From a virus, in the IMG/VR virus record IMGVR_UViG_3300043436_004382, positions 1 through 64,000 of that record: a stretch of DNA of 64,000 bases, one strand, 5' to 3'. This document shows, in pieces, positions 102 to 62,470 of the stretch (position 1 is the stretch's first letter; each line of letters starts with the position of its first letter). Made by a program: the position numbers and the translations under genes. The notes beneath the pieces are model-generated. The model had not been told where the DNA came from. It made no database searches and saw only the letters and a program-made list of their open reading frames with translations.

Positions 102-644
102 TTATTCAGATACGTCATCATCCTCTTCTTCATCATCCCGCCGATCGTACTTTGAGGCTAACGCATTGCTAACGATTTCTCTAGCTTTTTCAAAAAATCC
201 GACAGAATCTTCGTATCCGGTGATCTCATCCATTGCTAGCTCAATCTCTTCTGCAATCTCGTCAGTCTGCATTGAACTAGGATCTCCGTTTTGGAAAAAT
301 TCGCCCCAGTCAAGATCATCAAGATCAAATGATTCCTGAAGGCCTAGTTCCTTTTGACTTATGAATCCTTCCGCTTTGACCGTTGACATGTAGAAGTCTA
401 TTGAAACTGTAATCTCTGCCCAAAAATCTCTTTCAATGTCTGGGTATAGATCAGAATCTATCCCGAAATCTTCAATGTTCATGTTCCAACTTGATTCAAG
501 TTTGAGCACGTTATCGTCAACTGTGCCGCCAAAGCCTTTAGCCAATTGGTCAAGATCAATTGTAGGCATTCCAAGTTCTCTGAGTCGGCTCTCTTCGTCA
601 TTACTTAAGGTTTCAAGTACGAATTGTTTGAATGACTTTATCAT
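102..644 (-). CDS. Hypothetical acidic protein with an MIKSFKQFV N-terminus (the recurrent N-terminal motif family)
   Basis: 180-aa ORF with a poly-D/E C-terminus; the N-terminal motif is shared with many paralogs in this window. Confidence 0.6.
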   Translation of the reverse strand: MIKSFKQFVLETLSNDEESRLRELGMPTIDLDQLAKGFGGTVDDNVLKLESSWNMNIEDFGIDSDLYPDIERDFWAEITVSIDFYMSTVKAEGFISQKELGLQESFDLDDLDWGEFFQNGDPSSMQTDEIAEEIELAMDEITGYEDSVGFFEKAREIVSNALASKYDRRDDEEEDDDVSE

Positions 645-658
645 AGTTTACCTATTTT

Positions 659-1231
659 TTATCCAGGAAAGTGTGAGTACAACGTGTCAACCTTTTCTGT
701 ATATTCTGGTGCGATTGTCGTAAGCACGTCAGCCAGCAACGAGTACAGAGAAACAAGTTCAGAGTACTCTCGATATTCGCTAGTTGAATTATCGTTTCTA
801 AACAGTGCCATTACATCAATCAAGATTTCCTCAAGCAGCTCATAAATTTTTTCAGCGTCAACCTTTGCCGCGAATTCCTCATCGGATTCAACGTACTCAG
901 ATTCGGTCTTTAGATAATTATAGTAGTCTTGAGCAGAGTTCACTAGATTCTGCAGATCAGCTTGAGTATCTCTAACTTTGTGAGACTCGATCTCTTCCTT
1001 GTCGACCTTCTCTAACGAGAATAGAGGTACAGTTGCAATGTTCTCTTTTGAGTTGTGCAATTTTACCTTTGCGTATTCTCCCGTGATCGCAACCACTTCT
1101 CCCATCCCTCTGTATGATTTTACTGAATCGCCAACCTCAATGTTATTTGGATTAGAGTCCTCTTTTCTGTCAGGTTGATAAGATATTTCAAAGTCTTCTT
1201 CGAAGTTCTCGAAAAGTTTAATGTATTTCAT
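659..1231 (-). CDS. Hypothetical protein with a capsid-targeting-like N-terminus (MKYIKLFENFEED)
   Basis: 190-aa ORF; N-terminus belongs to the recurrent motif family. Confidence 0.6.
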   Translation of the reverse strand: MKYIKLFENFEEDFEISYQPDRKEDSNPNNIEVGDSVKSYRGMGEVVAITGEYAKVKLHNSKENIATVPLFSLEKVDKEEIESHKVRDTQADLQNLVNSAQDYYNYLKTESEYVESDEEFAAKVDAEKIYELLEEILIDVMALFRNDNSTSEYREYSELVSLYSLLADVLTTIAPEYTEKVDTLYSHFPG

Positions 1232-1628
1232 TATACTTGATGATTAATTCTCCCAATACTTCAATAATACCGACTATTCTCTGAAATTCCATCTGCTTTA
1301 GCTTGATGGCTTTAGTTGAACCGTCAATCGTCTTTAAGTGTTCGGCTAATTCTTTTTTTGCATCAGCTACATCAAATTTACCAGCAGCTGCCTTTTTATA
1401 GTAAGGAAATTTTACCTTAAAGTGTTGATAAGTAAGTAGAGCATCTCCGCCCTTTTCCTTTGCGTTCTGTGCGATCTTTGAAGCACCGGCAAGACGAGTC
1501 TTTGCAAATTCTTCCAAGGATTCATTTTTCTTTGCTTCATTGATGACGAACTCTCTGAAGCTGAATTCAGTCTTTATTTCTGAGTTTCCTCTAAGTTTTT
1601 GGTGTAAATCCCAATTAATTATTGACAT
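1218..1628 (-). CDS. Hypothetical protein
   Basis: 136-aa ORF in the same minus-strand gene array. Confidence 0.45.
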   Translation of the reverse strand: MSIINWDLHQKLRGNSEIKTEFSFREFVINEAKKNESLEEFAKTRLAGASKIAQNAKEKGGDALLTYQHFKVKFPYYKKAAAGKFDVADAKKELAEHLKTIDGSTKAIKLKQMEFQRIVGIIEVLGELIIKYNEIH

Positions 1629-1707
1629 TATATTAGATTTGCGTTTTTTACAGCAGTTTTTATCATATCCACAATAAACTCTAGTCTAGAGTCAATGCTT
1701 CATAGGG

Positions 1708-5596: not shown

Positions 5597-5681
5597 TGGT
5601 GCGGATGAAGGGACTCGAACCCCCACGTCGTGAAACACTAGATCCTAAGTCTAGCGCGGCTACCAATTACGCCACATCCGC
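5597..5681 (-). tRNA. tRNA-Leu (anticodon TAG), class II with long variable arm, CCA encoded
   Basis: Reverse complement gives GCGGATG-TG-GCGTAATTGGTAGCCGC..CTAGA-CTTAGGA-TCTAG..long variable arm..GGGGGTTCGAGTCCCTT-CATCCGC-ACCA. Confidence 0.75.
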
Positions 5682-26070: not shown

Positions 26071-26559
26071 TTATTCTTTTCCAACTTTTTTTACGTTTGC
26101 CCAAGATTTACTTGGAGAAGCTGAGTTTACTCTTGCCATTGCCCATTGATGAGCCGTCATTCCAGGTCTTGAACCTGAAGAATAGAAAGCACCTAGACCC
26201 TTAACGTATTCTCTTTTAAGATCCGCGAATGAGTAACCTTTTTTGGTTGCAACTGCCCTAATCTTAGCAAGAGTTTCTTTGCTTAAGTTTTTACCAGCCT
26301 TTTTAGCTTCATCGACTTGTGAATCCTTACGTGGAGTGTTCTTCCAGTCCGGTTTAGACCTTTCAGCCTTTTCCATTTCATCACGCAACTTATAAGCCTC
26401 CTCCTTTTTACCAGCTTTCAATAAGGCTTGAGCCTTATCTAACTTAGAGTCTCGGGAACTTCCCTCAGGCGCTTTGTATTTAGCCGGATGATTTGATTTG
26501 GCCTCGTTAAGTGTGTACTCATTGAAGCTCTGAATTAATGACTTAAGCATTGGGTTCAA
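26071..26559 (-). CDS. Lys-rich basic hypothetical protein
   Basis: 162 aa, very basic; C-terminal GSRPGMTAHQWAMARVNS. Confidence 0.45.
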   Translation of the reverse strand: MNPMLKSLIQSFNEYTLNEAKSNHPAKYKAPEGSSRDSKLDKAQALLKAGKKEEAYKLRDEMEKAERSKPDWKNTPRKDSQVDEAKKAGKNLSKETLAKIRAVATKKGYSFADLKREYVKGLGAFYSSGSRPGMTAHQWAMARVNSASPSKSWANVKKVGKE

Positions 26560-27123
26560 TTATTTTTTGATAGCTGCAAGCTTTGCGTTAGCCGCGTCGA
26601 TCTTAGCGATCTTAGAATCAAAGAAGCTCTTGAATTTAGTAACGATAGCTTTGATCTTGTCTGAAATCTTAGCGATTACAGCTTTAGCCTTATCGGTTAA
26701 TTTGCCCTCGTCTAATTTGTTAATTTCAAAAGAGTGTTTAACTTGAGTAATGCTAGTATTCTGTCTAACACATTCGTTGATGATTGCTTGAGCAGCTTCG
26801 TCAACCTGAGCAAGAGCCTGTTCAACAGCTTTTCCATAAGCTACAGCAGTTCCTTCTCCACCGTATCTTGTAATTTTCATTACGTACTTCTCAGTAGTTG
26901 CCAATTTATCGTTAAGAATCTTCATTGCATCAAAGATAGGTTTAACCGATGCGTCGAATTCCTTTAGCTCTCCTTCGATGGCTTTAGTTTCAGTAGTCAA
27001 AGCTTTCAATCTTTCTTTGATTTCGTGAATTCTTTCTAACTTAGCAATGATAGCTTTGTCTTTTAGTTGTGCTTCGTTAACTTGTGACTCGTTAACAAAT
27101 TCTGTGAACTTTAACAGTTTCAT
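26560..27123 (-). CDS. Hypothetical protein with a capsid-targeting-like N-terminus (MKLLKFTEFVNESQ)
   Basis: 187-aa Ala/Lys-rich helical protein; member of the N-terminal motif family. Confidence 0.55.
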   Translation of the reverse strand: MKLLKFTEFVNESQVNEAQLKDKAIIAKLERIHEIKERLKALTTETKAIEGELKEFDASVKPIFDAMKILNDKLATTEKYVMKITRYGGEGTAVAYGKAVEQALAQVDEAAQAIINECVRQNTSITQVKHSFEINKLDEGKLTDKAKAVIAKISDKIKAIVTKFKSFFDSKIAKIDAANAKLAAIKK

Positions 27124-27168: not shown

Positions 27169-27711
27169 CTAATCATCATAATCATCGTAATCATCAGGCT
27201 CATCAATTCTGTCAACCGCCGCCTGTAAGTCAGTCGAAAAGTCACCGAATATCTGTTTAAGCTGATTAGTATTATATAGACTTATAAATCTAGTTGAGAA
27301 TGCCTTTAGCTCACTACCCTCTAGCTCTTTCCAGTTGTTTCGCCAATCTCCTGAGTAAACTAGCTCAGAGATACGCTCTTCACTTGCCTCTTCCTTGAGT
27401 CCCAATCTAATGAGTTGAGCTGAAGTCTCAGGGTCTGATGGATTCAACAAATCAATAATTTCATCCCTGATTTCAGAATTAACAAATTTCGCAGCGTTAG
27501 TTACGTGATAGATTTCATAATCCTCAACGAAATCAAATGAGAATGGTATGCCAACTTCTGGATCAGCCGGTTGATGATCCCATGTTAAGTCTACATCAAA
27601 GCCGTGAACATCGTAAATTTCACCATCTATCATGAAAAGTTGCTCTTCTATCTCAATTCCATGAAGAGATTCGTTTAGTGATATAAATTCATTAAATTTC
27701 TTTAGTTTCAT
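27169..27711 (-). CDS. Hypothetical acidic protein with a capsid-targeting-like N-terminus (MKLKKFNEFISLNESL)
   Basis: 180 aa with a DDYDDYDD C-terminus; motif family member. Confidence 0.55.
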   Translation of the reverse strand: MKLKKFNEFISLNESLHGIEIEEQLFMIDGEIYDVHGFDVDLTWDHQPADPEVGIPFSFDFVEDYEIYHVTNAAKFVNSEIRDEIIDLLNPSDPETSAQLIRLGLKEEASEERISELVYSGDWRNNWKELEGSELKAFSTRFISLYNTNQLKQIFGDFSTDLQAAVDRIDEPDDYDDYDD

Positions 27712-28974: not shown

Positions 28975-28990
28975 GCGTATTGTTAATTTG

Positions 28991-29075
28991 CGGAGAGGGA
29001 GGGATTCGAACCCCCGTTAGTGTTACCTAAAACGGTTTTCAAGACCGCCGCGTTCAACCGCTCTGCCACCTCTCC
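28991..29075 (-). tRNA. tRNA-Ser (TGA), class II
   Basis: GGAGAGG-TG-GCAGAGCGGTTGAACGC..GCGGT-CTTGAAA-ACCGT, variable arm TTTAGGTAACACTAAC, GGGGGTTCGAATCCCTC-CCTCTCC-G. Confidence 0.75.
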
Positions 29076-40547: not shown

Positions 40548-41375
40548 ATGTTACTAAAGAATGGATCTTCAGGACCTGAAGTTAAACAACTTCAGGAAAA
40601 ACTTGGTCTTACCGCAGACGGTCAATTTGGACCTGGCACTGAGACTAAGGTAAAAGAATGGCAAGCAGCTAACGGCCTATCGGCTGACGGTATTGTTGGC
40701 CCGGCCTCTTGGTCAAAATTAATGGGAGCAGCCCCAGCTCAAGCAGCTGCACCAGTTGCAATCCCAGTTAGCGAATTTAAACTAGCTAATCTAAAAGGAC
40801 ACGTTCCGGATACAGTAATCGCTCAGATTCCTGATACTGCTGCAAAATTCGGCATCACAACTCCATTGAGACTTGCTCACTTCTTGGCACAATGTGGCCA
40901 TGAGTCTGGCGGATTCAAAGCAGTTCAAGAAAACTTAAATTACGGAGCAAAGGGTCTAAGAGGTATTTTTGCGAAGTACTTCCCAACCGATGCAAAAGCT
41001 CTAGAATACGAGCGTAAGCCGGAAAAAATTGCTAACCTAGTTTACGGTAACCGTATGGGTAATGGTGCTGAAACTACTGGTGAAGGTTATAAATTTCGCG
41101 GTCGTGGTTATATTCAACTGACTGGAAAGGATAACTACTCTAGATTCGACAAAACGGTTGATGAGAATATTATCGCAAATCCAGACCTAGTTGCAACCAA
41201 GTATCCATTGGCATCTGCTGCATTCTTTTTTCAGTCAAATGGTCTTTGGGCAATTTGCGATAAGGGAGCTGACGATGCTACTGTAACTTCAGTTACTAAG
41301 AGAGTTAACGGTGGAACAATCGGTCTTGCTGATCGTTTGAAACACTTTAAAGAGTACTACGCTCTACTAAAATAA
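40548..41375 (+). CDS. Endolysin: N-terminal peptidoglycan-binding domain plus GH19-type lysozyme domain
   Basis: PG_binding_1-like repeats (GSSGPEVKQLQEKLGLTADGQFGPGTE..; DGIVGPASW). Catalytic-domain motifs AHFLAQCGHESGGF and GRGYIQLTGKDNY are GH19 signatures. Confidence 0.75.
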   Translation: MLLKNGSSGPEVKQLQEKLGLTADGQFGPGTETKVKEWQAANGLSADGIVGPASWSKLMGAAPAQAAAPVAIPVSEFKLANLKGHVPDTVIAQIPDTAAKFGITTPLRLAHFLAQCGHESGGFKAVQENLNYGAKGLRGIFAKYFPTDAKALEYERKPEKIANLVYGNRMGNGAETTGEGYKFRGRGYIQLTGKDNYSRFDKTVDENIIANPDLVATKYPLASAAFFFQSNGLWAICDKGADDATVTSVTKRVNGGTIGLADRLKHFKEYYALLK

Positions 41376-42829: not shown

Positions 42830-43290
42830 TATTGCTTTTTGGAATTTGTTTTCTTTTTAATCATTTCCTCTGGCGTAAGCAGTGCTCTGCCGTATTCCTT
42901 CATACGCTCAGCGTATCTCTCCTTGACTCTTTCGCTAATTGCAAGCGGAGTACCCTCATCGTCAATTCTTACGAACTTGATATTCGTATGTGTTACTACT
43001 GTCTGAAGGCCGGTGAAGACGTTGTGCTTACGAACCTCAATGTAGAGAGTAATTGATGTTGTTCCAAATTCCTTGACCTCACCGTAAACTTTTAGAATAT
43101 TACCTACCTTTACTGGCTTTGCAAAGATAAGCTCATCTATTTTTAAGGTCACGACTCTCTGAGTATCGCAGGTCTGAGATGCATAACTTGCGGAGGCATC
43201 GTCTATTATTGAAAGGATTGTTCCGCCGAACATGTTATCGTGAATTCCGATATCTCCTTTCTTACAGATGTATGTGCTAATTAATTCCAT
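42829..43290 (-). CDS. Hotdog-fold acyl-CoA thioesterase (YciA/4HBT-like)
   Basis: IGIHDNMFGGTILSIIDDASA ... pattern typical of the 4HBT family. Confidence 0.6.
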   Translation of the reverse strand: MELISTYICKKGDIGIHDNMFGGTILSIIDDASASYASQTCDTQRVVTLKIDELIFAKPVKVGNILKVYGEVKEFGTTSITLYIEVRKHNVFTGLQTVVTHTNIKFVRIDDEGTPLAISERVKERYAERMKEYGRALLTPEEMIKKKTNSKKQ

Positions 43291-43832
43291 GATTCTTCTA
43301 TACGATCGCCATCCGGTTTTGAGTAAACTATCTTGTTTGGATTTACCTCATACGCTTTGTTCTTGAATTTCTCAACGTATTTCTTGCCCATTCCAGGTTT
43401 TAAGTAACCGATCGTCGCATGTGGATGATAGTCCGGAAAATTGGTGGTGTGAGGTAGTTCGCTAAGCTTGGCATTAATTTCGTATAGAGCTGAGTTCTGA
43501 ACATCGAACTTCAGTACATCGTATTTCTCATTTTCAAATAGAGAAGCATTGACTAACATCAACGGACCTATTGGTCTAGACTTACAAATGTCCATTACAG
43601 TATCGTCATTGATCTCGTTTGAGTGAAGGCCGTAGAGTAGAGTGGTGTGAGGTTCATCCTCTAATCCAAAAGATCGATCGCCTTCTTCAGTATAAACGTC
43701 GTCTGAATCTATTTCAGCATGAAATTCCTGCATCTGTGGAAAATCGAAATACACCATGGCACAGCCATAGGAATGAGAATCGCCCTTCTTTTCAAAAAGA
43801 CCTGCGATGAATTGTGTGAATGATTTAATCAT
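43281..43832 (-). CDS. 2H-phosphoesterase superfamily protein (LigT / 2'-5' RNA ligase / cyclic phosphodiesterase-like)
   Basis: Two HxT motifs (HTTLLYGL and HATIGY) at the expected spacing. N-terminus MIKSFTQFIAGLF is motif-family-like. Confidence 0.6.
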   Translation of the reverse strand: MIKSFTQFIAGLFEKKGDSHSYGCAMVYFDFPQMQEFHAEIDSDDVYTEEGDRSFGLEDEPHTTLLYGLHSNEINDDTVMDICKSRPIGPLMLVNASLFENEKYDVLKFDVQNSALYEINAKLSELPHTTNFPDYHPHATIGYLKPGMGKKYVEKFKNKAYEVNPNKIVYSKPDGDRIEESWN

Positions 43833-48547: not shown

Positions 48548-49705
48548 TTAAGGTATCTTAACTCCGGGAATTCCCATTAACTGGTTTCTTAATGCTCTAA
48601 GCATTGGAATATGATTTGAAAACTTAACAGTCTCGAACCAGAATGGAGTTTTGGTTTTTGAATTTAGAACGACTTGGTAATCGCTAAGACCTGCGTACTT
48701 TTGTAGAGTTTGAGAATTGAATACGACTGGCTTTGCAACTAGATTTCCATTCTCCTGACGAATCATCATCGGCGAAGAGAGTCCAACCATGTTTACCCAA
48801 CGGCCAGCTCTTTCAACTTCTCTAGCCCAATCAACATAGAATACGAAGAGCCTACGACCTCCGTCTACATCAGGACCCATTACAACGACGGTGTTACCCT
48901 TACCGAAAGAAACAGATTCGTCAACTACATCAGTTTCAGTAGAGAATTTAGAATCTACTGCATCAGATGGTTCTGAATAAATGTGTGAATATGCTTGGGA
49001 TTTTAGGTCAATCAATTTACCGATCCAACCTTCATTACGTAATCTCTTGAATACTAGATTTTCAACCGAGAACTCTCCGCCCTTATGAGCGAGCTGTTCG
49101 TCCCTTGATCTTGAGATCTTTTTCTTTAGGACAGAAGCTCTTTCCATAATATCACGAGCCTCTTCAGGTCCAGCGCCTTTAATCTCTTCCATCATTTTCT
49201 TTATTGCATAAATGTAATGGTCGGATTTTAGCTGAACGTCTTTTGGATCGACGCTAGGCTGGCTGTATTCTGGTTTTCTAATCCATTCTCCCCTTAACAG
49301 AGAATATAGGCCTGATGCTAAGTGTAGTTGATTTATGTCCTGTGCGTACAGTTCAACATCGTATCCTCCAATATTTACAGGATGGCGTTGATTCCATACG
49401 GTTTTTAAACCTTCCATTGCTATCTTTACAAGTTCAACATCGTCGTTTATCTTGGAGAGATCCATGATAACGTGTACGTCAAAGTCAGAATACTTTGTCC
49501 AGTTATAGTTAGCTAGGGAACCAGTAAGTTGAATGTCCTCAATTGGAGCACTAACTTTTAGGTCCTCATAGAAGTCATGAGCGATTTGCAGAAGCTTGGT
49601 TCTGAGCTCAGGGTTAATTTCTTCTCCATCCCAGACCATTGGATTCAATTGATCTTGATAGAATTGACCCTCATTTATGAATTCGGTAAATTTAAAAAGT
49701 TTCAT
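48548..49705 (-). CDS. Capsid-targeting-like N-terminus fused to a Pol-beta-type nucleotidyltransferase domain
   Basis: MKLFKFTEFINEGQ N-terminus; LTGSLANYNWTKYSDFDVHVIMD minimal NTase motif (GS...D.D). Confidence 0.5.
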   Translation of the reverse strand: MKLFKFTEFINEGQFYQDQLNPMVWDGEEINPELRTKLLQIAHDFYEDLKVSAPIEDIQLTGSLANYNWTKYSDFDVHVIMDLSKINDDVELVKIAMEGLKTVWNQRHPVNIGGYDVELYAQDINQLHLASGLYSLLRGEWIRKPEYSQPSVDPKDVQLKSDHYIYAIKKMMEEIKGAGPEEARDIMERASVLKKKISRSRDEQLAHKGGEFSVENLVFKRLRNEGWIGKLIDLKSQAYSHIYSEPSDAVDSKFSTETDVVDESVSFGKGNTVVVMGPDVDGGRRLFVFYVDWAREVERAGRWVNMVGLSSPMMIRQENGNLVAKPVVFNSQTLQKYAGLSDYQVVLNSKTKTPFWFETVKFSNHIPMLRALRNQLMGIPGVKIP

Positions 49706-52980: not shown

Positions 52981-54147
52981 TTAAGTAACTCTTGTGTCAG
53001 CATTTAAGTAATCGATTCCATGTCGATTGGAAATTCTCTTAATTCTCTCGTTTTCGTCAGCAAAAATTGCCCTGCCTCCACCGTAGACTGAAACGTAACT
53101 AGCCAACATTATTCCTACACTAGATAATTTATCAAGCACCACTTCCAAGCTCTCAAAACCAATCTCACGAGACTGATTTTTATCTGGTGAGATTGAAATA
53201 GATCTCACTTTTGGATCGCTCACAGGTAGAAAGTTAAAGTTATCAAGGTTTGTAATTTGACCTCCAAATTGATATTGACCTGATCTATCGTGCGAAATTG
53301 ATATTCCAGGCTTAGATAGAACAGTTATCATGTCTTGCGTGTAAGTTTGGTTACCGGTAAACACTATCTTACATGAACCATTTTCGAAATAATTTGTTAG
53401 ATTCTTAATTGAATTTTTACGAAGAGCTGCATCATTCAGGCCTCCCATCGTATGGTAAAGAGATTCAATTGTTTTTTGAGACTCGCTTGCACTAATTTTA
53501 GTCATGTCCTCTTGAACAAGTTTAGTAATCAAGTTCATCAAAATAGTTTGATCATCGATTGCCCTTTTAGCTGAAGCTGAAGCTCTCTTAGTCGGAAACG
53601 ATCGGTCTGAAAAATCTACATTATCTGATGCCCATCGCATAGCGGTCTTAAAAAATTGAGTTTCGCTAAGTCTTTCAAATCTCTTCATGACCATGTCCAA
53701 ATCTCTGTATCCAGTTTTAGGAACGATTCGCCTTACTACATTGGTTGATGCGAAGAAGCCTAATGCAAAGTCAGCTTTTGGATTTCGATCAAAACTCTTT
53801 GAAAAGACTAGAGTACGATTGAGCAGTTGAGTGAATGATGATGATAGAACAACACCTTTCTCAACTAGGGCTGCATATTCCGGAGAATCAAACACATCGA
53901 TCAGCCATCTGAATTCAGGTTTCGTTCTAAGATCTTCAAACCATTCGTTTGAATAAACTTTATGTTGTGATTTGGTATTTAATATGCTTTTGGCCTGTAT
54001 GTTAAGCTGACGGCGAATACTCGACGTCTGCTCAGCATATTCTTGATCATCGACTAGCCCTATTTCCCTTAATCTCTCAAGATCTTCTAACTCGGCCATT
54101 AATATGTCAGTCGTTTTTTCTTCAAATAATTTTATGTACTTTGGCAT
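52981..54147 (-). CDS. Hypothetical protein with a capsid-targeting-like N-terminus (MPKYIKLFEEK)
   Basis: 388 aa; motif family member. Confidence 0.5.
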   Translation of the reverse strand: MPKYIKLFEEKTTDILMAELEDLERLREIGLVDDQEYAEQTSSIRRQLNIQAKSILNTKSQHKVYSNEWFEDLRTKPEFRWLIDVFDSPEYAALVEKGVVLSSSFTQLLNRTLVFSKSFDRNPKADFALGFFASTNVVRRIVPKTGYRDLDMVMKRFERLSETQFFKTAMRWASDNVDFSDRSFPTKRASASAKRAIDDQTILMNLITKLVQEDMTKISASESQKTIESLYHTMGGLNDAALRKNSIKNLTNYFENGSCKIVFTGNQTYTQDMITVLSKPGISISHDRSGQYQFGGQITNLDNFNFLPVSDPKVRSISISPDKNQSREIGFESLEVVLDKLSSVGIMLASYVSVYGGGRAIFADENERIKRISNRHGIDYLNADTRVT

Positions 54148-54199: not shown

Positions 54200-54745
54200 T
54201 TATCGAAGTCCAGTCCTGGATAACTGTTTTCTTAATTTGGTCTTGGCATCATGCACGTTTGATTTAACTGCACCTGCCGTTGTACCCATGTGAACTGCTG
54301 CCTGCTCGTACGATAGGTCCTCATAGACAACAAGTTTAAATGCCAATTGCTGTCGAGTTGGAAGTTGATTTACGATTTCCCTAATCAGGTTCAAAGCCGG
54401 TCGATCCGCATGAACGTCTTGGGTTTCAATGTCAATGCCTTCAATATCCGAGAATGCTTTAGTTTTCGTTTTGAACTGTCTGATCCAATTAACCGTTTCA
54501 TTACGCACGATCCTTGCCAACCATGCAGCAAAAGGGCCGGTGCCGCTCCACTTATCAAGATTCATGAAAGCTTTAGTCAGCCCTTGAGCTACTGCTTGAT
54601 CAAGGTCGTCTTGATCCTTTAAGTATCGAGCAGCGTTTTGGTAAGCAAGAGGTTTCCACTGATCCCACAGATCTGTGAGAGCTCGACGATTTCCAGTTCG
54701 GGCCGCATCGACCAATGAGTCGGTGTGGCGTAAGTTTAAGTCCAT
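54200..54745 (-). CDS. Sigma-70/ECF-family RNA polymerase sigma factor
   Basis: Region 2 (..FAAWLARIVRNETVNWIR..) and region 4 HTH (QQLAFKLVVYEDLSYEQAAVHMGTTAGAVKSNVHDAKTKLRKQL). Confidence 0.65.
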   Translation of the reverse strand: MDLNLRHTDSLVDAARTGNRRALTDLWDQWKPLAYQNAARYLKDQDDLDQAVAQGLTKAFMNLDKWSGTGPFAAWLARIVRNETVNWIRQFKTKTKAFSDIEGIDIETQDVHADRPALNLIREIVNQLPTRQQLAFKLVVYEDLSYEQAAVHMGTTAGAVKSNVHDAKTKLRKQLSRTGLR

Positions 54746-54771: not shown

Positions 54772-55596
54772 TTAGGACGTTTTAATGATATCGGCTAGAG
54801 TCTTGGCACGATCTCCTACCTGCTTTGCCCAAGTTGACCTCAGCATTTCTTCAGAGGCAGCATCAAAGTTTTTCTGTTTGATATGGGTTAGGAAATTAGT
54901 AAACTCCGAGAGACCTCTTTTACCTAAATTGAAAACCATTTCAGTTAAGACTCCCTGGACTTGAGTTGGTAGGTTTGGCATGTTCGGGACTAATTCCTGT
55001 GCATTAACTTTAGCCTGCTTAAGATCAGTAAAGAGCAGAGCAGTTATCTGTTCTTGAGTCAATGGGGATTTACCAGCCTTAACCTTTTCCGGATTAGCTC
55101 CTACCTTTTTTAACTGAGCAGTCGCATCTTCACGATTAAGATTAAAACCTACTCCTACCGTTGGGATCTTTCTGGAATCCAGATACTTAAAAGGTTTTGA
55201 GCCTTCATGTTTTATAACTCGATTCTTGATCGAAGCAATAACCGGATCGGTTGGGGGAGGTGGTGCTTTAAATGAGTTGAGGTATTGTTCTGCTCTAATG
55301 TTCTTGATGTGGGTCATTATTTGATTCTTGTAGTCAGAATCCATAATTCCAAGCTCGCCGTTGATTGCATCTCCAACGCTTGGATACTCCCATGATTTCT
55401 GTGGATCCTCGTGACCTGCCTTCAAGGCCTTATTGATCTTGACTAATGAATATGCATCTGGAATTGATTTGATGGCGGCAGCCAAAGCCTCCTCGTCTGT
55501 ACCCATTCCAGCGGTTGATGTCTGAATTTGTGCAGCGATTTGGTCTGCAGTTAAGGCCTCGTTTATCCAGCTCTCAAATAGTTTTACATGCTTCAT
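54772..55596 (-). CDS. Capsid-targeting-like N-terminus fused to a T4-lysozyme-like (GH24) muramidase
   Basis: N-terminus MKHVKLFESWINEAL. C-terminal half aligns to T4 e lysozyme (IKHEG..; MVFNLGKRGLSEFTNFLTHIKQKNFDAASEEM..WAKQVGDRAKTLADII). Confidence 0.7.
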   Translation of the reverse strand: MKHVKLFESWINEALTADQIAAQIQTSTAGMGTDEEALAAAIKSIPDAYSLVKINKALKAGHEDPQKSWEYPSVGDAINGELGIMDSDYKNQIMTHIKNIRAEQYLNSFKAPPPPTDPVIASIKNRVIKHEGSKPFKYLDSRKIPTVGVGFNLNREDATAQLKKVGANPEKVKAGKSPLTQEQITALLFTDLKQAKVNAQELVPNMPNLPTQVQGVLTEMVFNLGKRGLSEFTNFLTHIKQKNFDAASEEMLRSTWAKQVGDRAKTLADIIKTS

Positions 55597-55698: not shown

Positions 55699-56304
55699 TT
55701 AGAAATTTTGAAGTTGGTTTTGGCCTATTTTGTAATCTCTATTTGCAAAACTTTTGAATCGACGATGAAGTAGTCTTCTAATCGTTGATAATCTGGTCGT
55801 AATTGTCGAAACTGATAATCCAATCTCTTTAGAGATTTCCTTGAGAGCTAGTTCATTAACATGATGCAATTCAAAGATTCGAGCATAGGTCGGTCCTAAT
55901 TTGTGGAGGACTAATCTCTTTGCGACCTCGTGCAGCCGGTGCGGGTTCAACACAATTTCTTTAGGCTCAACACTTTCTTCGAGTCTACCGGACGGCACAT
56001 AGTCGTCATCTGCCCAATCCGGAATTAATTGACTTTCCAAAACGACCGGTGTTTCCAACCTCTTTTTTACGGCCTCACACCATCCCCAATAGCAAGTCTT
56101 CATCAAGTAATTTACCATGTGAACCTCATTCTCAAATTCAAGTTCTCGATTCTTGGCTGAAACTGCGCTACGAATTGCGCAGAACTGGGCATGCTCAAGA
56201 TCGTCTTCATGGCTAACGAATCCACCCCATCTCTTTATCGAGACCATTACAAATCCTCGACCCTGCCCAAAGAATTTGACTATTATCTCATCGGTTATTT
56301 TCAT
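55699..56304 (-). CDS. Second sigma-factor-like protein (sigma-70 region-4 HTH at the C-terminus)
   Basis: ..LALKEISKEIGLSVSTITTRLSTIRRLL.. region-4-like HTH; 201 aa. Confidence 0.5.
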   Translation of the reverse strand: MKITDEIIVKFFGQGRGFVMVSIKRWGGFVSHEDDLEHAQFCAIRSAVSAKNRELEFENEVHMVNYLMKTCYWGWCEAVKKRLETPVVLESQLIPDWADDDYVPSGRLEESVEPKEIVLNPHRLHEVAKRLVLHKLGPTYARIFELHHVNELALKEISKEIGLSVSTITTRLSTIRRLLHRRFKSFANRDYKIGQNQLQNF

Positions 56305-56478: not shown

Positions 56479-56868
56479 TTAGTAAAGGTCATTGAGCAAA
56501 ATGTACTCGAACCAACCAATATCGTCAATTCCGCTAGAATCATACATCCAGGTTTTAACCTGTTCAAGTTCTTGAGAATCGTCATCAGACTCAGAGTCTA
56601 TGTGCTTTTCGAACAGTTCTTGGAACTTAGATTTTAGAGTATCGATTGCAGCATTTACTTCCGGATCAGAACTCCATTCGTCAACTAAAGTTGTGTAACG
56701 TTCTTTAAACGGGGCAGAGTAATTAGTTAAACCCAGATCTCTAAGACGGTCCTTTTCGCCTTTATCGAGGTCTTGATCTTCGTTTATGAATTGATCAAAT
56801 GCTTTTAAATTTTTCATGAATGATCTTTTATTTTTTGCCTGTTTTTTGGGTGCCGAATTGGGCTGCAA
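56479..56868 (-). CDS. Acidic hypothetical protein
   Basis: 129-aa ORF. Confidence 0.4.
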   Translation of the reverse strand: MQPNSAPKKQAKNKRSFMKNLKAFDQFINEDQDLDKGEKDRLRDLGLTNYSAPFKERYTTLVDEWSSDPEVNAAIDTLKSKFQELFEKHIDSESDDDSQELEQVKTWMYDSSGIDDIGWFEYILLNDLY

Positions 56869-57454
56869 CTATCTTTGAGAGTTCAATGTCTTGATCTGTT
56901 GCTCGATTGATTGCATCCTTCTCCATTCTTCTCATGAAGTCCGGAAACTGGGCTCCAACCTTGAGCACGCATTCGGTCCAAGGTTTTGGATCGTACTCTC
57001 GCTTTTTGGTGTAGTACTCACGAGCAATCTCGCCAGAGGTATCATCGTCCAGGTAGACGGTGTCTGCTCCAAGCTTGAAACTTGCTTCAACTGTTGGGTA
57101 ATCCTCCATTGAAATGGACCATTGGCATGAGGTTTCATTCTCAAGCTCGGCCCAACACTTCACGCTCTCATTGGTCTCTTCGAACTCAACCAGCTTTTTT
57201 ACTTTACCTGTGAGCCAGTCCTTAAATGTTTTGGGTTCCTCAGGCGCTGGTGCTTCAGGTGTCGTTTCAGTAGTGTCCTCTTCGGGCTCGGTTTCAGCGG
57301 GTTCTTGCACCTTAACTGGCTCCTCTTCAGGCTCGGCTGCAGGTTCAGGCTTGGGCTTCTTCTCCTGCTTTTTGAAAGGCACGGGCTTGTGAGCTTGGTC
57401 CGCTGCGCGTTCCATGTCCTCAAAGAAGTTTTCGTATAGTTTAATGTATTTCAA
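56828..57454 (-). CDS. Hypothetical protein with a capsid-targeting-like N-terminus (MKYIKLYENFFED) and a Pro/Glu-rich linker
   Basis: PEPAAEPEEEPVKVQEPAETEPEED low-complexity linker; motif family member. Confidence 0.5.
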   Translation of the reverse strand: MKYIKLYENFFEDMERAADQAHKPVPFKKQEKKPKPEPAAEPEEEPVKVQEPAETEPEEDTTETTPEAPAPEEPKTFKDWLTGKVKKLVEFEETNESVKCWAELENETSCQWSISMEDYPTVEASFKLGADTVYLDDDTSGEIAREYYTKKREYDPKPWTECVLKVGAQFPDFMRRMEKDAINRATDQDIELSKIVAAQFGTQKTGKK

Positions 57455-58090: not shown

Positions 58091-58666
58091 TTAACCGACT
58101 CTTTCAAGTTCCTCAATACCACTAAATACTCTACCGTTGCCAACAATATTGGTTTCTATCCAATTGTGAACCTCATCCTGGTTATCAGTTGTGGTTACGA
58201 TCGTGAACCTAATAAAGTTTCTCTGATCATAATTCATTGAGTCAAAACCTTGATCCTCTATCGCCTGCTTCACAAGGTCTATAAGCTCACCGAGCCTTTC
58301 CTTAGTATCAACATCAAGCCCAAGTTCATCAATTAAGTCTAGTAACTCAGGTTTTCTCATTTGGTCAATCTCATCTTCGGTTGGAATCTCATCATCTCGT
58401 GATACGTAATCCTCCTCGGTCCATTCATCGATATCAACTGAGTCCTCCTTTACCTGAAAATCGGAGCTAACTGAATTAATTTCAGGTAACCACTCAATCA
58501 ATTTGCTCTTGATGTATTCCGGTTCACTCTGACAAGCTTGATCGAACTCAATCTCGAGCTCAACATCCCAATCAATAAGTAATCCAAGTTCCCTTAGTCG
58601 GCCTTCTTCGTCTCCAGTAAGACTCTCGTTCACGAATTGATTAAAGTTTTTAACTAATTTTTGCAT
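58091..58666 (-). CDS. Acidic hypothetical protein with a capsid-targeting-like N-terminus (MQKLVKNFNQFVNESL)
   Basis: 191 aa; motif family member. Confidence 0.55.
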   Translation of the reverse strand: MQKLVKNFNQFVNESLTGDEEGRLRELGLLIDWDVELEIEFDQACQSEPEYIKSKLIEWLPEINSVSSDFQVKEDSVDIDEWTEEDYVSRDDEIPTEDEIDQMRKPELLDLIDELGLDVDTKERLGELIDLVKQAIEDQGFDSMNYDQRNFIRFTIVTTTDNQDEVHNWIETNIVGNGRVFSGIEELERVG

Positions 58667-58690: not shown

Positions 58691-59215
58691 TTATTTATTA
58701 GACTCAAGGTCCCGTCTAAGCATGAAGTAGCCTAGATAGTCTTGGTCCTCCCATTCAACCGCTCTAGTCCCGTTCCCGTCCTCAAAGAGCACCACCCTAA
58801 CCTCGTCCCCGTATTCCGGCGACTCAAGAAAGATCTCTTTAAGCTGTCGTGAACTCTCAGGTCGACGATACTCGTCGGTGTCCGGATCATAGGTTATTAT
58901 ACCAGGAAAGCGACGGCAGAATTCACGAACGCTCGGCTCGGTCAGGTGGGTGAGAGCCAGCAGGTTAAAGACCTCAACCACAGAGTCCAGCGGTAAGCTG
59001 TCAAGCAGTTGTTGCTGATTAGCAAGGCCAAGTTCATGGAGTCTGGCAACATCCGGCGGTGGCTCAATGCCAAGCATTTTACAGGTCTCAATCGCGGCCT
59101 CTGAGTACATCTCAAGGCGGTCTTCCGCCTCGGCAAAATGGTCCGGATTGAGCACGTCCTGTAGAGTTGCAAGTTCTGAATTATTGAATTCTTCGAATAT
59201 CTTAAGGTATTTCAT
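58691..59215 (-). CDS. Hypothetical protein with a capsid-targeting-like N-terminus (start moved to the internal MKYLKIFEEF)
   Basis: The ORF-track start at 59254 would overlap the upstream gene. The internal Met restores the family motif. Paralog of 59227..59703 (shared ..LHELGL..). Confidence 0.5.
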   Translation of the reverse strand: MKYLKIFEEFNNSELATLQDVLNPDHFAEAEDRLEMYSEAAIETCKMLGIEPPPDVARLHELGLANQQQLLDSLPLDSVVEVFNLLALTHLTEPSVREFCRRFPGIITYDPDTDEYRRPESSRQLKEIFLESPEYGDEVRVVLFEDGNGTRAVEWEDQDYLGYFMLRRDLESNK

Positions 59216-59226
59216 TTGAGTTTTTT

Positions 59227-59703
59227 TTATAATGCTGAGCCCAACATGAACCACATCTTAACATAGAAGCTCTCCCATTGGACCGCAGTATTACCAGCTG
59301 AGTCCTTCCACACGATCACATCTACTGGATCTCCAGGATCGATGTCAGCTTCCGGATCAATCTCCTTGTCGGGAATCGCTTTGCGGCTGGCGATAAGCTC
59401 ATCGTAATCAAGCGTGAAGAGTCCCGGAAACTTCTGAACCAGGGCTCTGAGCCTTGGGCCATCAGCGTGTGTGAGCTCATTAATATTGAACACCAGCGTG
59501 ACTCTATCGAACAGTTCGTACTCGTCAATGAGGCCAATCTCCCGAAGTCGTTGTTCATCTGGATCAAGTTTAAGATCAAGAGCATTGACCGTTTCAAGTG
59601 CGGCCCTTTCAAAATCTTCGAACTCGTCAGGGTTATTCTCGACCACGTCCCTTAGGGTCGGTAGATCAGAGGCAAGTTCCTCGAATAGTTTAATATACTT
59701 CAT
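59227..59703 (-). CDS. Hypothetical protein with a capsid-targeting-like N-terminus (MKYIKLFEEL)
   Basis: 158 aa; motif family member. Confidence 0.55.
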   Translation of the reverse strand: MKYIKLFEELASDLPTLRDVVENNPDEFEDFERAALETVNALDLKLDPDEQRLREIGLIDEYELFDRVTLVFNINELTHADGPRLRALVQKFPGLFTLDYDELIASRKAIPDKEIDPEADIDPGDPVDVIVWKDSAGNTAVQWESFYVKMWFMLGSAL

Positions 59704-59716: not shown

Positions 59717-60544
59717 TTACAGGTAGTTACTTGAGCCGGCTAGTCGATCTTCCCAATAGCGCAGGATCTCCTCGTTCGATGTGCCTTCAGGAAAATCAGA
59801 GCGCATTGGAAGATTCATGGGTTCCTTACTATCCTGACCGAATCTTGGGTTTTTCACGGTCACATTGGTTACAACAATAGGGTCTGGACCCAGTCTGTCT
59901 TTTGCACCGAATTCGGGACTAGGGCCAATGCGGGTGATAATAATCTTGGTGCCGTCCTTGGTATGAAGAGTCTCCATGGACTGGGAGCGGTGAATGTTGG
60001 TGCTCTTGGTCTCAGCAGGCAGAGGCAACTTAACCAGATACTCCTTTTGGCTCCAGGCCATGTATCTAAAGCTTACGTCTGGATCATCGCTCCACTCGCC
60101 TTCTTCTTCAGCCTTTGCCTGCTCCGGAGAGACCTTGGCAAGACCCAACCAGCTGGCTGCCCATTCAATGGAGAGTAGAATATTCGGACGAACCTTTTCT
60201 ATTGGTATCGACAATAGGGTGTGTTCACCGAACCTGGCTGCAACATCCCGATCAGAAGAAAAGGAGGTTATTCGATCATGTATGGTGTAGTTATCTGAAT
60301 CCGGTTCCCAGTCCTGGTGCAGCCCACGCCAAAGAGTCTTCACTCTCTTGGAGTCTAGTTGCCTAAGGCTCTCTTCGCGGATGAAAGGATTGTTCTCGAT
60401 CAGTCTAATCAGTTCATCGGCATCCGATTCGGTAAACCTAAGACTCTCTTCATTGCCCATGACCCAACTCTCAATAAGCCTCATTAGCTTGGGCTTTAGT
60501 AGGTCCCTACTTTCAAAAAGTTGCTTAGATATGATGTACTTCAT
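59717..60544 (-). CDS. Hypothetical protein, motif-family-like N-terminus (MKYIISKQLFES)
   Basis: 275-aa ORF. Confidence 0.5.
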   Translation of the reverse strand: MKYIISKQLFESRDLLKPKLMRLIESWVMGNEESLRFTESDADELIRLIENNPFIREESLRQLDSKRVKTLWRGLHQDWEPDSDNYTIHDRITSFSSDRDVAARFGEHTLLSIPIEKVRPNILLSIEWAASWLGLAKVSPEQAKAEEEGEWSDDPDVSFRYMAWSQKEYLVKLPLPAETKSTNIHRSQSMETLHTKDGTKIIITRIGPSPEFGAKDRLGPDPIVVTNVTVKNPRFGQDSKEPMNLPMRSDFPEGTSNEEILRYWEDRLAGSSNYL

Positions 60545-60607: not shown

Positions 60608-61087
60608 TTATTCTTGAATTGGGTTATCGCCAACATAGTCTTTGATTAGCTTGGCAGTCTCGGTCTCGCAATAGCTTTTCCATTGGGCATTCAGCCGAAT
60701 CGGCAGTCTAAAACTCGATCCACGTGGGCCAATCAATTCCAGACCGTTGGCCTTTACGAAATCCATTGCCCGGTCCATCGCATCAAGGCTAAAGTTCTCA
60801 AATTCAGCCGGGCTCAATTTCAATAGAGGTTCAAACTTAAGCAGACCGTCGGTGTCTCGGTCTATTATCATCTTGTGTAGAGTCTTGGTTCCGGATTGAG
60901 TGTATGAGTCGGGCTCATTTTCGTATCGTGTCCTGATCCTGTCCAGATTGGCCAGCCCAATTCGAAGGGCTCGTTGGGTTAGGCTGGTTCCAACCGATCG
61001 AACGGTTGGCAGTATCGTGCAGCGGACTGGTCTGGTCTCATCATCAGAGTCATGCATGAGATTCTCAAATAGTTTAAGGTATTTCAT
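60608..61087 (-). CDS. Hypothetical protein with a capsid-targeting-like N-terminus (MKYLKLFENL)
   Basis: 159 aa; motif family member. Confidence 0.55.
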   Translation of the reverse strand: MKYLKLFENLMHDSDDETRPVRCTILPTVRSVGTSLTQRALRIGLANLDRIRTRYENEPDSYTQSGTKTLHKMIIDRDTDGLLKFEPLLKLSPAEFENFSLDAMDRAMDFVKANGLELIGPRGSSFRLPIRLNAQWKSYCETETAKLIKDYVGDNPIQE

Positions 61088-61114: not shown

Positions 61115-61300
61115 TTATTCTCCAACCGCCCGTTCAAAGACGATGAAGTAACCGCCCCTAAAGAACTGGCTTGAACCTGTGGAAACGTGCTGTGCGGTAA
61201 CTGACACAATCTGCCAACCCTCGGTAAGTAGGGCATCCACCTTGGCCTGCACCTCATGCGAGCCCTGATCACCGGTCACGAGTACTTTTTGTTCTTTCAT
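61115..61300 (-). CDS. Hypothetical small protein
   Basis: 61-aa ORF. Confidence 0.3.
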   Translation of the reverse strand: MKEQKVLVTGDQGSHEVQAKVDALLTEGWQIVSVTAQHVSTGSSQFFRGGYFIVFERAVGE

Positions 61301-61319
61301 GTTGTTCTATTTGTATTAG

Positions 61320-61396
61320 AGGTCAGGACAGGATTCGAACCTGTAATATAGTGCATCCAGTAGATGCTTGCGTCTGACCAATTCCGCCACCTGACT
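61320..61396 (-). ncRNA. tRNA-like element 1 (class II Leu-like D-arm, canonical T-arm, aberrant anticodon/variable region)
   Basis: AGTCAGG-TG-GCGGAATTGGTCAGACGC..AGCAT-CTACTGG-ATGCA..ACAGGTTCGAATCCTGT-CCTGACC. The 1-72 pair is mismatched and position 34 would be A. Confidence 0.4.
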
Positions 61397-61477
61397 ATGT
61401 AGTGGAGCGTCATCCATTTCTGGATTATCCACTTCTGTTACGTTATCTCACGATAAGAGGCTTTACAGAGCACCATG

Positions 61478-61558
61478 TAGTCAGGACAGGATTCGAACCT
61501 GTATAATTTCATCTCTACTCTATGAGTCGGAATTACTGTAACCGCCCAGCGCCTGACT
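61478..61558 (-). ncRNA. tRNA-like element 2 (same acceptor and T-arm as element 1, different non-canonical body)
   Basis: AGTCAGG-CG-CTGGGCGGTTACAG...CTCATAGAG...ACAGGTTCGAATCCTGT-CCTGACT-A; no canonical D or anticodon arm. Confidence 0.35.
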
Positions 61559-61573
61559 ATAGAGTCTATTATA

Positions 61574-61603
61574 CAAAAAAAAGGGGCTCAATGGCCCCTT
61601 ATT
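61574..61603 (-). terminator. Rho-independent terminator
   Basis: AAGGGGCCATTGAGCCCCTT plus TTTTTTTT on the minus strand. Confidence 0.55.
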
Positions 61604-61621
61604 AAACTTGAATAGTAATGT

Positions 61622-62071
61622 TTAGTTTTCGTCGCTGATCCAGGTCGCAAGCTTTAGTGCAACTCGTCTGGCAAGCTTCTCCATTGAGTAGTCGCCAGGA
61701 TTAGCGGTCACGGTTATTGAGTCTTGGTTCGTTGACCCATCGCCCTTGGTAATGAATACGTCAGCAACATCGCCAGCCGGTGAAAAGTCATCCTCTTCTT
61801 CCTGGCCCTTGTAGTAGTTATCAGTTGCGGGCTCAATGAAGTAGTAGTTCTCAGGATCTTCTGGACTCTCAACATAGATGATGTAGCCGCCTTCGACGTC
61901 GCTAGATTTTTGAAGAGATGTATTCCATTCAGGTAGTAGCTTATCAACTTCCATTTTAATGGCGGTCATTAGGTTGGACTCAGTCGTTGTTCTAAACGAA
62001 GCCATGCGATCGCCCTCTTGAATTTCGTTCTCATTAACGAATTGAGTAAATCCTTTAATTAATTTTTTCAT
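61622..62071 (-). CDS. Hypothetical protein with a capsid-targeting-like N-terminus (MKKLIKGFTQFVNENE)
   Basis: 149 aa; motif family member. Confidence 0.55.
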   Translation of the reverse strand: MKKLIKGFTQFVNENEIQEGDRMASFRTTTESNLMTAIKMEVDKLLPEWNTSLQKSSDVEGGYIIYVESPEDPENYYFIEPATDNYYKGQEEEDDFSPAGDVADVFITKGDGSTNQDSITVTANPGDYSMEKLARRVALKLATWISDEN

Positions 62072-62104
62072 TATCTGTATTTTTTTTTTTGTAAGATTAT
62101 TTAT

Positions 62105-62470
62105 CTAGGTCAAGTCAATCTCTTCTCCCGATTCATTGTCTATTAATACAGAACAACCTGCACGCCTTGCAATCTCTTGTGCTCTATCCCATAGTGCTTG
62201 ATTGACCGCCTCATGATCTTCATCCGAATCAGAGTCGAGTACCGATGGATCCAGTACATTGGCTAATGAGTCAAGGCTAATTAGCACGTTTTTACCCGGC
62301 AGGTTGCTGAACTCAAGCCTAAGCATGTCGTCGTTACTGTTACCCGAATAGGCAGTTGCAACCGTCTGAAATCCCATTGTTCCAAGTTCTCTAGCAATGG
62401 AATTAGAGTCTTCATGGTCCATGTGGTTTTCATTTACGAACTGTTGAAATCCTTTAATTAATTTTTGCAT
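62105..62470 (-). CDS. Hypothetical protein with a capsid-targeting-like N-terminus (MQKLIKGFQQFVNENH)
   Basis: 121 aa. The upstream region (TTTTTTGTAAGATTATTTATCTAG) is identical to that of 61622..62071, so the two are tandem paralogs. Confidence 0.55.
   Translation of the reverse strand: MQKLIKGFQQFVNENHMDHEDSNSIARELGTMGFQTVATAYSGNSNDDMLRLEFSNLPGKNVLISLDSLANVLDPSVLDSDSDEDHEAVNQALWDRAQEIARRAGCSVLIDNESGEEIDLT

Follow-up and report, generated by a model that had tools for sequence, protein, structure and literature searches.

Candidate T4-type capsid-targeting tags on a hypervariable set of genes in a very large uncultured phage

A shared N-terminal tag in a 64-kb stretch of phage DNA

The DNA analysed here covers positions 1 to 64,000 of the IMG/VR virus record IMGVR_UViG_3300043436_004382 (hereafter the window), and the feature under study is a short peptide tag at the start of many of its genes that resembles the capsid-targeting sequence (CTS) of phage T4. 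Nearly every gene of the window lies on the minus strand, the G+C content is about 0.40, and the genes have A-rich leaders in which Shine-Dalgarno sequences are absent. The topoisomerase II large subunit (46199-48034) had its best matches, at 47-56% identity, in LR745206.1, LR756502.1 and LR756504.1, 'uncultured phage' genomes of 634-642 kb, among which LR745206.1 is the nearest named relative of the window (topoisomerase II 56% identical). A Megablast search with 12 kb of the window as query found no close relative among phage records, and tblastn with the tagged protein encoded at 58091-58666 returned no matches. Since the topoisomerase II matches genomes of 634-642 kb and no close Megablast relative was found, the source is judged to be an uncultured phage of very large size whose replication genes are in part related to those of T4. 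Its hosts are presumably Bacteroidota, in which it would differ from T4; the clues are the starts lacking a Shine-Dalgarno sequence and the nearest matches to uncultured 634-642 kb genomes.

Nineteen minus-strand genes started with M-K-x-[IL]-K-x-F-x-[EQ]-F-[VI]-N-E or with a degenerate version of this motif (MKNLKAFDQFINE versus the degenerate MKYIKLFENFEED). The tag spans 10-14 residues, and every copy begins at an initiator codon, which places it at the extreme N-terminus of the protein. A first-pass annotation of the sequence had claimed at least 18 such genes and listed 17 starts, all of which are starts of minus-strand open reading frames (ORFs) with the peptides reported for them. Three of these need a qualification: the gene starting at 57454 uses a TTG codon, although both start and peptide are kept in a close relative (locus L086); the peptide at 54147 begins MPKYIKLFEE; and that at 60544 (MKYIISKQLFES) is only weakly motif-like, as had been noted. 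The copies starting at 56817 and 26550 were missing from the earlier list and complete the 19.

All tagged genes are given below with minus-strand coordinates, and E-values are those of the tag profile described in the next section. Canonical F-x-[EQ]-F-[VI]-x-E tags were carried by the genes at 1..83 (MVKTFKQFVLENLSRDEENRLRELGMP..., of which only the 5' part precedes the window edge), 102..644 (180 residues, acidic, MIKSFKQFVLET; E = 9e-4), 26560..27123 (187 residues, MKLLKFTEFVNES; E = 1.4e-5), 27169..27711 (180 residues, MKLKKFNEFISLNE; E = 1.2e-3), 48548..49705 (385 residues, MKLFKFTEFINEG, with a weak nucleotidyltransferase match), 56479..56817 (112 residues, MKNLKAFDQFINED; the top profile score of the window, E = 1.8e-6), 58091..58666 (191 residues, acidic, MQKLVKNFNQFVNES), 61622..62071 (149 residues, MKKLIKGFTQFVNEN) and 62105..62470 (121 residues, MQKLIKGFQQFVNEN), the last three also being profile matches and the last having a 71% identical homologue in locus L007. 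Near-canonical tags preceded a lysozyme (54772..55596, 274 residues, MKHVKLFESWINE), a 2H phosphoesterase resembling Acb1 and LigT (43281..43832, MIKSFTQFIAGLFE followed by KK) and a DUF5824 body (26071..26550, MLKSLIQSFNEYTLNE), the latter weakly tagged (E = 0.07). Degenerate MKY[IL]KLFE... tags were found at 659..1231 (190 residues, MKYIKLFENFEED; not significant with the independent profile), 52981..54147 (388 residues, MPKYIKLFEEKTTD), 56828..57454 (208 residues, TTG start, (M)KYIKLYENFFED), 58691..59215 (174 residues, MKYLKIFEEFNNSE), 59227..59703 (158 residues, MKYIKLFEELASD), 59717..60544 (275 residues, the weakly tagged gene named above) and 60608..61087 (159 residues, MKYLKLFENLMHD). 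Intermediates between degenerate and canonical tags were abundant in IMG/VR (MKHIKLFEQFVNE), and the counterpart in L086 of the degenerate tag at 54147 has the complete form (MPKYIKLFESFISE).

The DNA pattern for K-x-F-x-[EQ]-F-[VI]-N-E occurred four times in the window and in none of 100 shuffles, and a looser peptide pattern was concentrated at minus-strand N-termini; most other genes of the window lack the motif. As described in the first-pass annotation, tagged genes form two tandem arrays, at 56.5-62.5 kb and 26.1-27.7 kb. Its term 'paralogs' is, however, a misnomer, because the tag is common to these genes and the bodies are not. When the first 16 residues were removed, all-against-all BLASTP left a single significant pair, the genes starting at 59215 and 59703 (E = 3e-21), in agreement with its statement that the bodies are unrelated. 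In the N-terminal stretch compared, the proteins starting at 83 and 644 were alike, as were those starting at 62071 and 62470.

A second motif, in which RLRE[LI]G[LMV] follows an acidic stretch, was observed 10-45 residues past the tag in the proteins starting at 83, 644 (as RLRELG), 54147, 56817, 58666 (also RLRELG) and 59703. As it contains L-x-E, it could be another target of the protease, or make contact with the scaffold.

Similarity to the T4 capsid-targeting sequence

In T4, the CTS is MKTYQEFIAE, and the internal proteins (IPs) that carry it are cut once beside the tag (PMC8442874); the CTS is sufficient for the packaging of foreign proteins (PMC3012670; PMC5694885). A profile was built from 107 tags found in loci of uncultured phages only, each centred on a protease-scaffold gene. 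Applied to 135 kb of T4 (2,373 candidate starts), it placed IPIII at rank 1, IPII at rank 2 and IPI at rank 6, which bears out the resemblance to the T4 CTS proposed in the first-pass annotation. Among the 1,177 candidate starts of the window, the eight best were 56817, 27123, 58666, 49705, 62071, 62470, 644 and 27711 (E ≤ 1.2e-3), followed by 43832 and 26550.

The two tags share their setting, a 10-20-residue peptide that forms the very beginning of otherwise unrelated proteins, and a core Y/F-x-E/Q-F-I/V-x-E that ends in a protease site and is recovered in both by one profile. The tag of the window differs in being 2-4 residues longer in front (MK-x-[IL]-K-x-F versus MKTY). The degenerate MKYIKLFE... 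copies are comparable to T4 IPI (MKTFKEFTSTTTPVSTITE), a working example in which the conserved first half is likewise followed by a variable spacer and, further on, by an x-E site (I-T-E in IPI).

Rank 3 in T4, ahead of IPI, was taken by gp61.1 (NC_000866, 18966-19130), a hypothetical protein of 54 residues starting MKTFKEFIKED. Judged from this N-terminus, gp61.1 may be an unrecognised CTS-bearing protein of T4.

A protease signature at the end of a detachable tag

In T4, the prohead protease gp21 recognises I/L-x-E and cleaves behind the Glu, and cleavage after Glu is common to all members of its family that have been studied (PMC12991175; PMC5694885). Canonical copies in the window end in [VI]-N-E or L-x-E, with Val at position P3 in many copies versus Ile or Leu in T4. 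This ending was examined in the 120 best homologues of the 2H phosphoesterase (43281-43832), of which 115 had an N-terminal extension of 15-50 residues. All 115 extensions contained hydrophobic-x-Glu, compared to 43 ± 5 in shuffled extensions, and the cleavage-type ending that the first-pass annotation had seen in the tags of the window is also present across this family. In the alignment, the Glu concerned (E14 of MIKSFTQFIAGLFE followed by KK) was at least 90% conserved while the surrounding positions were variable, and one member of the family starts MKTYNDFITE.

In the structure model of the 2H protein, residues 1-20 had a predicted local distance difference test (pLDDT) score below 50, with a short helix at residues 6-12, and the fold began at about residue 22. 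Because residues 1-20 form a low-confidence extension, flexible in the model, ahead of a well-folded core, the Glu site is predicted to be accessible to a protease. Maribacter phage Molly encodes an untagged 2H homologue, and the start of that gene has an in-frame stop 17 codons before it. Taken with the model, this comparison indicates that the tag is a detachable add-on.

Related proteases are known from the giant phages phiKZ, 201phi2-1 and SPN3US, where a gp21-related protease cuts after Glu, many head-internal proteins are processed, and paralogs can share identical N-termini (PMC5694885). The common element would be a gp21-related prohead protease that cuts after Glu in an x-Glu motif. 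In those phages, in contrast, the propeptides of ejection and inner-body proteins are mostly 80-160 residues long and family-specific, whereas the tag described here is a universal one of 13 residues, and the cleavage motif is A/S/G-x-E rather than hydrophobic-x-E. Candidate cleavage sites in major capsid proteins (SINE/N in LR745206.1 and ELYE/N in locus L065, the slash marking the cut) were only suggestive, did not align with the T4 site LTE/A, and were not used as evidence.

Conservation of the peptide and its distribution

Given the lack of Shine-Dalgarno sequences, the A-rich leaders and the A/T-rich consensus codons, the motif could be read as a nucleotide-level feature of translation initiation in AT-rich genomes, that is, an unstructured A/T-rich coding start; the first-pass annotation had named a nucleotide-level element among the findings that would refute its proposal. 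Codon use was compared in 123 non-identical tags located near protease genes of uncultured phages and gathered without any DNA pattern. At the conserved F, E, Q, N and K of the tag, synonymous codons had the frequencies seen in gene bodies, with F encoded as TTT at frequencies of 0.68 and 0.53 in the tag versus 0.63 in bodies, and E as GAA at 0.89 versus 0.87. Many synonymous differences were also present among the copies of the window. Because the codon use of the tag matches that of the bodies, and because the distance between the upstream octamer (see below) and the start varies from 12 to 33 nucleotides, selection acts on the tag peptide.

The distribution of the motif was assessed with a degenerate DNA pattern for MK-x(3-5)-F-x-[EQ]-F-[VIM]-N-E (ATGAARN{9,15}TTYNNNSARTTYRTNAAYGAR), run on IMG/VR and on 596 Gb of cellular genomes, many of them from Bacteroidota. 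At least 118 loci were found in IMG/VR. Among the matches listed, 137 of 146 (94%) were in frame, 128 of these 137 (about 93%) lay no more than 30 codons past an upstream stop, the tagged bodies were very diverse, and several loci had 2-4 copies. The cellular genomes gave 120 loci, of which 39 were in frame versus the 3/7 expected by chance, and these matches were mostly internal, as in the MKTDRLFFEFMNEV conserved in Bacilli. The few N-terminal cellular matches clustered on contigs of metagenome-assembled genomes (MAGs) that carry several tags and resemble phage DNA. Three contigs filed with bacterial MAGs (L175, L207 and L141), binned as Bacteroidetes, Trichloromonas and Muribaculaceae genomes, had 1-4 N-terminal tags within a few kb, and are probably phage DNA mis-binned into MAGs.

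Since the viral matches are in frame and N-terminal while the cellular ones look like chance, the tag is a phage feature, and not a general property of AT-rich or Bacteroidota genes. The explanation by translation initiation is contradicted by the matching codon frequencies, and has further against it the fixed order in which F, F, [VI], N and E are conserved, the chance-level and mostly internal occurrence in cellular genomes, and the absence of the motif from most genes of the same window. Codon use and the contrast between viral and cellular counts together lead us to reject a nucleotide-level element as well as chance, and an origin of the first kind is regarded as highly improbable.

Head modules of tag-bearing phages

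When T4 head proteins were used as queries on the tag-selected loci (118 listed), a gp20 portal was found in 14, a gp21 protease in 12 and UvsW in 12. Typical loci (L003, L023, L065 and L069) had the order portal, protease-scaffold fusion (605-637 residues) and gp23-like capsid gene, with 3-9 tagged genes around them; a tagged gene lay between portal and protease in L069, and between protease and capsid gene in other loci. The nearest named relative, LR745206.1, possesses a T4-like terminase, sheath and portal (193127-194860), a 707-residue protease-scaffold protein (198546-200669) and a gp23-like capsid gene (200752-202434). Among its 879 genes, 42 N-termini were profile-positive and fell into two dialects, MIKKYxQFIxE and MKHLKxFNE, and its homologue of the tagged 2H gene of the window retains the tag (MKLKKYKQFIKE).

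The catalytic residues of gp21 are His85 and Ser140 (PMC12991175). Both aligned in the proteases of L065, L069, LR745206.1 and Tenacibaculum phage PTm1, in the contexts GEL(N/D)HP and SSR(G/A), PTm1 also having a gp21-scaffold homologue. The kind of phage presupposed by the first-pass annotation, one with a gp21-type protease, is thus found among the tag-bearing relatives, LR745206.1 included.

Tag density was determined in 64 loci centred on protease-scaffold homologues, a set chosen independently of the tag. These contained 181 tags in 836 kb (21.7 per 100 kb), representing 12% of candidate starts, and the same scan found no tag in stretches of PTm1, Molly and T4 (for T4, 40 kb that exclude the IP genes).

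Proteins carried behind the tag

Three of the tagged proteins had been assigned functions in the first-pass annotation. The lysozyme call (54772-55596) was confirmed by a Pfam Phage_lysozyme domain at residues 129-267 (E = 3e-11). In the N-terminal half of this protein, residues ~27-45 bear an annexin-like signature (AGMGTDEEALAAAIKSI), a stretch in which Pfam found nothing. The 2H phosphoesterase call (43281-43832) was sub-threshold in Pfam, yet two invariant H-x-T motifs (H62/T64 and H138/T140, in 56 sequences of the family alignment) and the fold confirm it: the structure model had a pLDDT of 89, and its closest PDB entries were Acb1 (7T27/7T26), a poxvirus cGAMP phosphodiesterase and LigT (E about 1e-5; TM score 0.45-0.6). 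A subfamily of tagged 2H proteins (P0054, P0056, P0064, P0067 and others) was also observed to have a Cys-rich insert, PCWxGYKQxGTKKKxGKxVPNCVP, between tag and enzyme core. The nucleotidyltransferase call (48548-49705) stands only as a possible one, its Pfam match (19.6 bits) falling short of the cut-off of 21; the alignments with its homologues in LR745206.1 and in capsid-gene-centred loci begin at residue 1.

Pfam and PHROGs gave no family match for most of the cargo in the window. Similarly, the majority of 134 non-redundant tagged proteins from viral contigs had no Pfam match, the rest including ATP-grasp, cytidylyltransferase-like, ferritin and methyltransferase domains. The internal proteins of T4 are small, basic and DNA-associated. 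The cargo of the window is mostly acidic and includes several enzymes, and should not be filed as homologues of these proteins but as CTS-bearing proteins.

Enzymes in the head have a precedent in T4 Alt, which is packaged in the head, loses an N-terminal propeptide and is then delivered along with the DNA (PMC5694885). Alt is comparable in being a packaged enzyme with an N-terminal propeptide, and enzymes are also among the tagged cargo here; its propeptide (MELITELFDE...) differs in falling outside the profile. No ADP-ribosyltransferase was found among the cargo of the window.

A promoter-like octamer and the turnover of tagged cassettes

The octamer ATAAATAA occurred 22 times on the coding strand of the window versus three times on the other strand, and was situated upstream of 12 of 18 tagged genes versus 5 of 69 untagged genes (Fisher p = 4e-7). 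At the tagged genes it lay 12-33 nucleotides before the start, as at 62495..62502 (minus strand) and at the 11 other copies, with 5' ends at 62104, 61118, 60556, 59715, 58698, 57469, 55629, 54178, 49718, 27739 and 27152; examples are the genes starting at 60544 (12 nucleotides), 49705 (13), 27711 (28) and 27123 (29). The octamer overlaps with TATAAATA, the late promoter of T4. It also precedes the gene at 18176-19312, which has a virion-structural PHROG match, and in relatives it precedes a tail-tube-like gene (L026) and a homologue of the 18176-19312 gene (L019). Two sigma-factor-like genes lie within the tagged array, at 54200..54745 (PHROG 1740, E = 5e-17) and 55699..56304 (PHROG 1740, E = 4e-4), both on the minus strand, and their products are candidates for reading the octamer. 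The tagged genes are presumably expressed late.

The first-pass annotation had also suggested a hypervariable arsenal, and comparison with the close relative L086, an IMG/VR contig, bore this out. L086 (1-10542) is 77-99% identical to the flanking genes of the window across 50.5-57.5 kb, and within this interval tagged genes have been gained, lost and replaced. L086 possesses three additional tagged genes, of 74 (MKHIKLFEQFITE), 466 (MKMKSFKQFMNE) and 491 residues (MKYLRIFESWISNED), and its counterpart of the 54147 gene is just 42% identical. Like behaviour, with gain and loss between relatives, has been described for the internal-protein loci of T-even phages (PMC3012670).

Such turnover, the joint occurrence of octamer and tag, and the nearly identical DNA upstream of the genes starting at 62071 and 62470 would also be expected if a mobile cassette of promoter plus gene start had spread by recombination in hyperplastic regions, with the peptide a passenger kept by descent or gene conversion. 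Several properties of the tags run counter to this: the spacing between octamer and start is variable (12-33 nucleotides), the codon use of the tag is as free as that of the bodies, homologues at only 39-60% identity retain both tag and Glu, and the peptide is kept across phages of 28%-45% G+C whose upstream elements differ (ATAAATAA, TAATATATA or GATATATAA). A passenger peptide is accordingly considered improbable; a mobile cassette may account for the spread of the tag, but not for the retention of the peptide. Arbiol et al. (2010) reportedly described PeSL elements, promoter-containing short repeats that flank rapidly exchanged small genes of T4-type genomes. The arrangement here is similar in that octamer and tag precede cassette-like genes, and different in that PeSLs are DNA stem-loops with an early promoter and no conserved coding portion, whereas here a peptide is conserved.

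A proposed role as packaging signals

We consider it reasonably likely (probability about 0.65) that the tags of the window are of the T4 capsid-targeting type and mark a hypervariable set of proteins that are packaged and probably injected. They are assigned to the T4 kind because they agree with it in position, consensus and cleavage-type ending, in the behaviour of their cargo and in the head genes of the phages that carry them. Tag-bearing phages have gp21-family proteases and, as in T4, cargo genes that are hypervariable among relatives. They differ from T4 in number (about 19 tagged genes per 64 kb here and 42 in the 635-kb relative, versus three IPs in T4), in a mostly acidic cargo that includes enzymes, and in the fusion of the protease to the scaffold.

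We infer that the tag binds the scaffold and is cleaved, and that the cargo is made late, packaged and injected. The tag would be a short peptide, flexible and in part helical, built around the core [FY]-x-[EQ]-F-[VI]-x-E. Many of the tagged genes would be driven by the common promoter-like ATAAATAA, which resembles a T4 late promoter. During head assembly, the tag would bind the prohead scaffolding core, such that the fused protein is enclosed, and a gp21-family prohead protease would then cut after the Glu of hydrophobic-x-Glu at its end. The mature cargo would remain in the head with the DNA and would probably be delivered to the next host cell. The cassettes could thus encode fast-evolving, pre-made effectors, among them the lysozyme, the Acb1/LigT-like 2H phosphoesterase, the possible nucleotidyltransferase and many acidic proteins.

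Several observations weigh against this interpretation. The canonical [VI]-N-E ending is missing from about one third of the copies, and the six or seven degenerate copies, all lacking it, cannot be told from background by the independent profile. The T4 control is strong but not fully blind, as the regular expression that collected the training tags was written with knowledge of the T4 comparison. No portal, protease or capsid gene is present within the 64 kb of the window, so that the protease of its own genome is deduced from relatives. Among cultured relatives, no tag was found in PTm1 (Tenacibaculum; 30 kb around the head genes), the cyanophage P-SSM7 (40 kb) or Molly (Maribacter; 10 kb). 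The TATATA upstream element of LR745206.1 was not enriched at its tagged genes (19% versus 23%).

The remaining difficulties are also those that favour a different function. The prohead protease might recognise and remove the tag, or the tag might serve as another phage-specific localisation signal, with no packaging in either case; as a removable pro-peptide it could hold late enzymes in an inactive state or direct them to the membrane or the site of assembly, and the proteins would act in the producing cell and not in the next host. Tagged genes are numerous, amounting to about 20% of the genes of the window. Most of its cargo is acidic (D+E 0.19-0.27, K+R 0.07-0.11), in contrast to the basic T4 internal proteins. 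The tagged enzymes of metabolic type (ATP-grasp, ferritin and cytidylyltransferase-like) have no obvious role in a capsid, and a helicase-like protein carries a near-tag. In the clade of LR745206.1, tags were not enriched near head genes (1.4 per 100 kb in 80 loci with capsid genes 69-80% identical). On the other hand, tag density in one clade peaks around the portal, protease and capsid genes, and gp21 works inside the prohead, which means that cleavage implies enclosure. In T4, the sole system tested, the motif suffices to package foreign proteins (PMC3012670; PMC5694885). A role without packaging is hence held to be unlikely, though less so than the mobile cassette, and capsid targeting remains the preferred interpretation.

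A wider proposal, which we put forward only tentatively and regard as somewhat more doubtful than not, is that the 13-residue tag serves a large, mostly uncultured T4-related radiation, including 600-kb phages of Bacteroidota, as a portable label, readable from sequence, that addresses proteins to the inside of the capsid. If this is true, sets of packaged or injected proteins could be read from metagenomes, with dozens per genome and hundreds of families, and the cargo would include ready-made counter-defence enzymes, such as an Acb1-like 2H phosphoesterase present before phage gene expression. Injected phage proteins, for example T4 IPI and Alt, act first against host defences, and fast-changing cargo of this kind has the profile expected of counter-defence genes. 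To our knowledge, injected protein sets are established for only a handful of cultured phages; if the tag works as in T4, candidates could be listed by sequence for thousands of uncultured phages, including the largest. The tag would then also be a ready packaging signal for engineering such phages, and the T4 CTS an old and widespread device rather than a peculiarity of T-even phages. A full-text search found no paper with these peptide strings in the library covered, and none of the papers on the capsid-targeting sequence, judged by title or abstract, dealt with uncultured or huge phages. What appears new here is that the tag has spread through a large uncultured radiation, 600-kb phages among them, that single genomes have so many tagged genes, and that enzymes are part of the cargo.

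Other features of the window

The window encodes 23 tRNA genes, 19 of them in one 3.6-kb cluster at 22232-25811 in which several mechanically called ORFs are spurious; further sites are 5597-5681, 28990-29075 and 61319-61396, and Rfam detected nothing but tRNAs in the window. One tRNA, at 19730-19802 on the minus strand (labelled SeC by ARAGORN; Rfam tRNA 48.7 bits), has the anticodon TCA, which would read UGA. TGA terminates 7 of 78 long ORFs, and there is consequently no sign of stop-codon recoding within the window.

The G+C content reaches 0.52 at 62500-64000, compared to about 0.40 elsewhere. Rfam found nothing in this region, part of which is conserved in locus L110, and the long plus-strand ORF at 62855-63667 looks spurious, with an unusual translation rich in Gly, Pro and Arg. 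Among the few genes on the plus strand is that at 40548-41375, which has no tag and is 60-71% identical in LR745206.1 and several IMG/VR relatives; its product may be an endolysin, as suggested by an N-terminus resembling a peptidoglycan-binding repeat.

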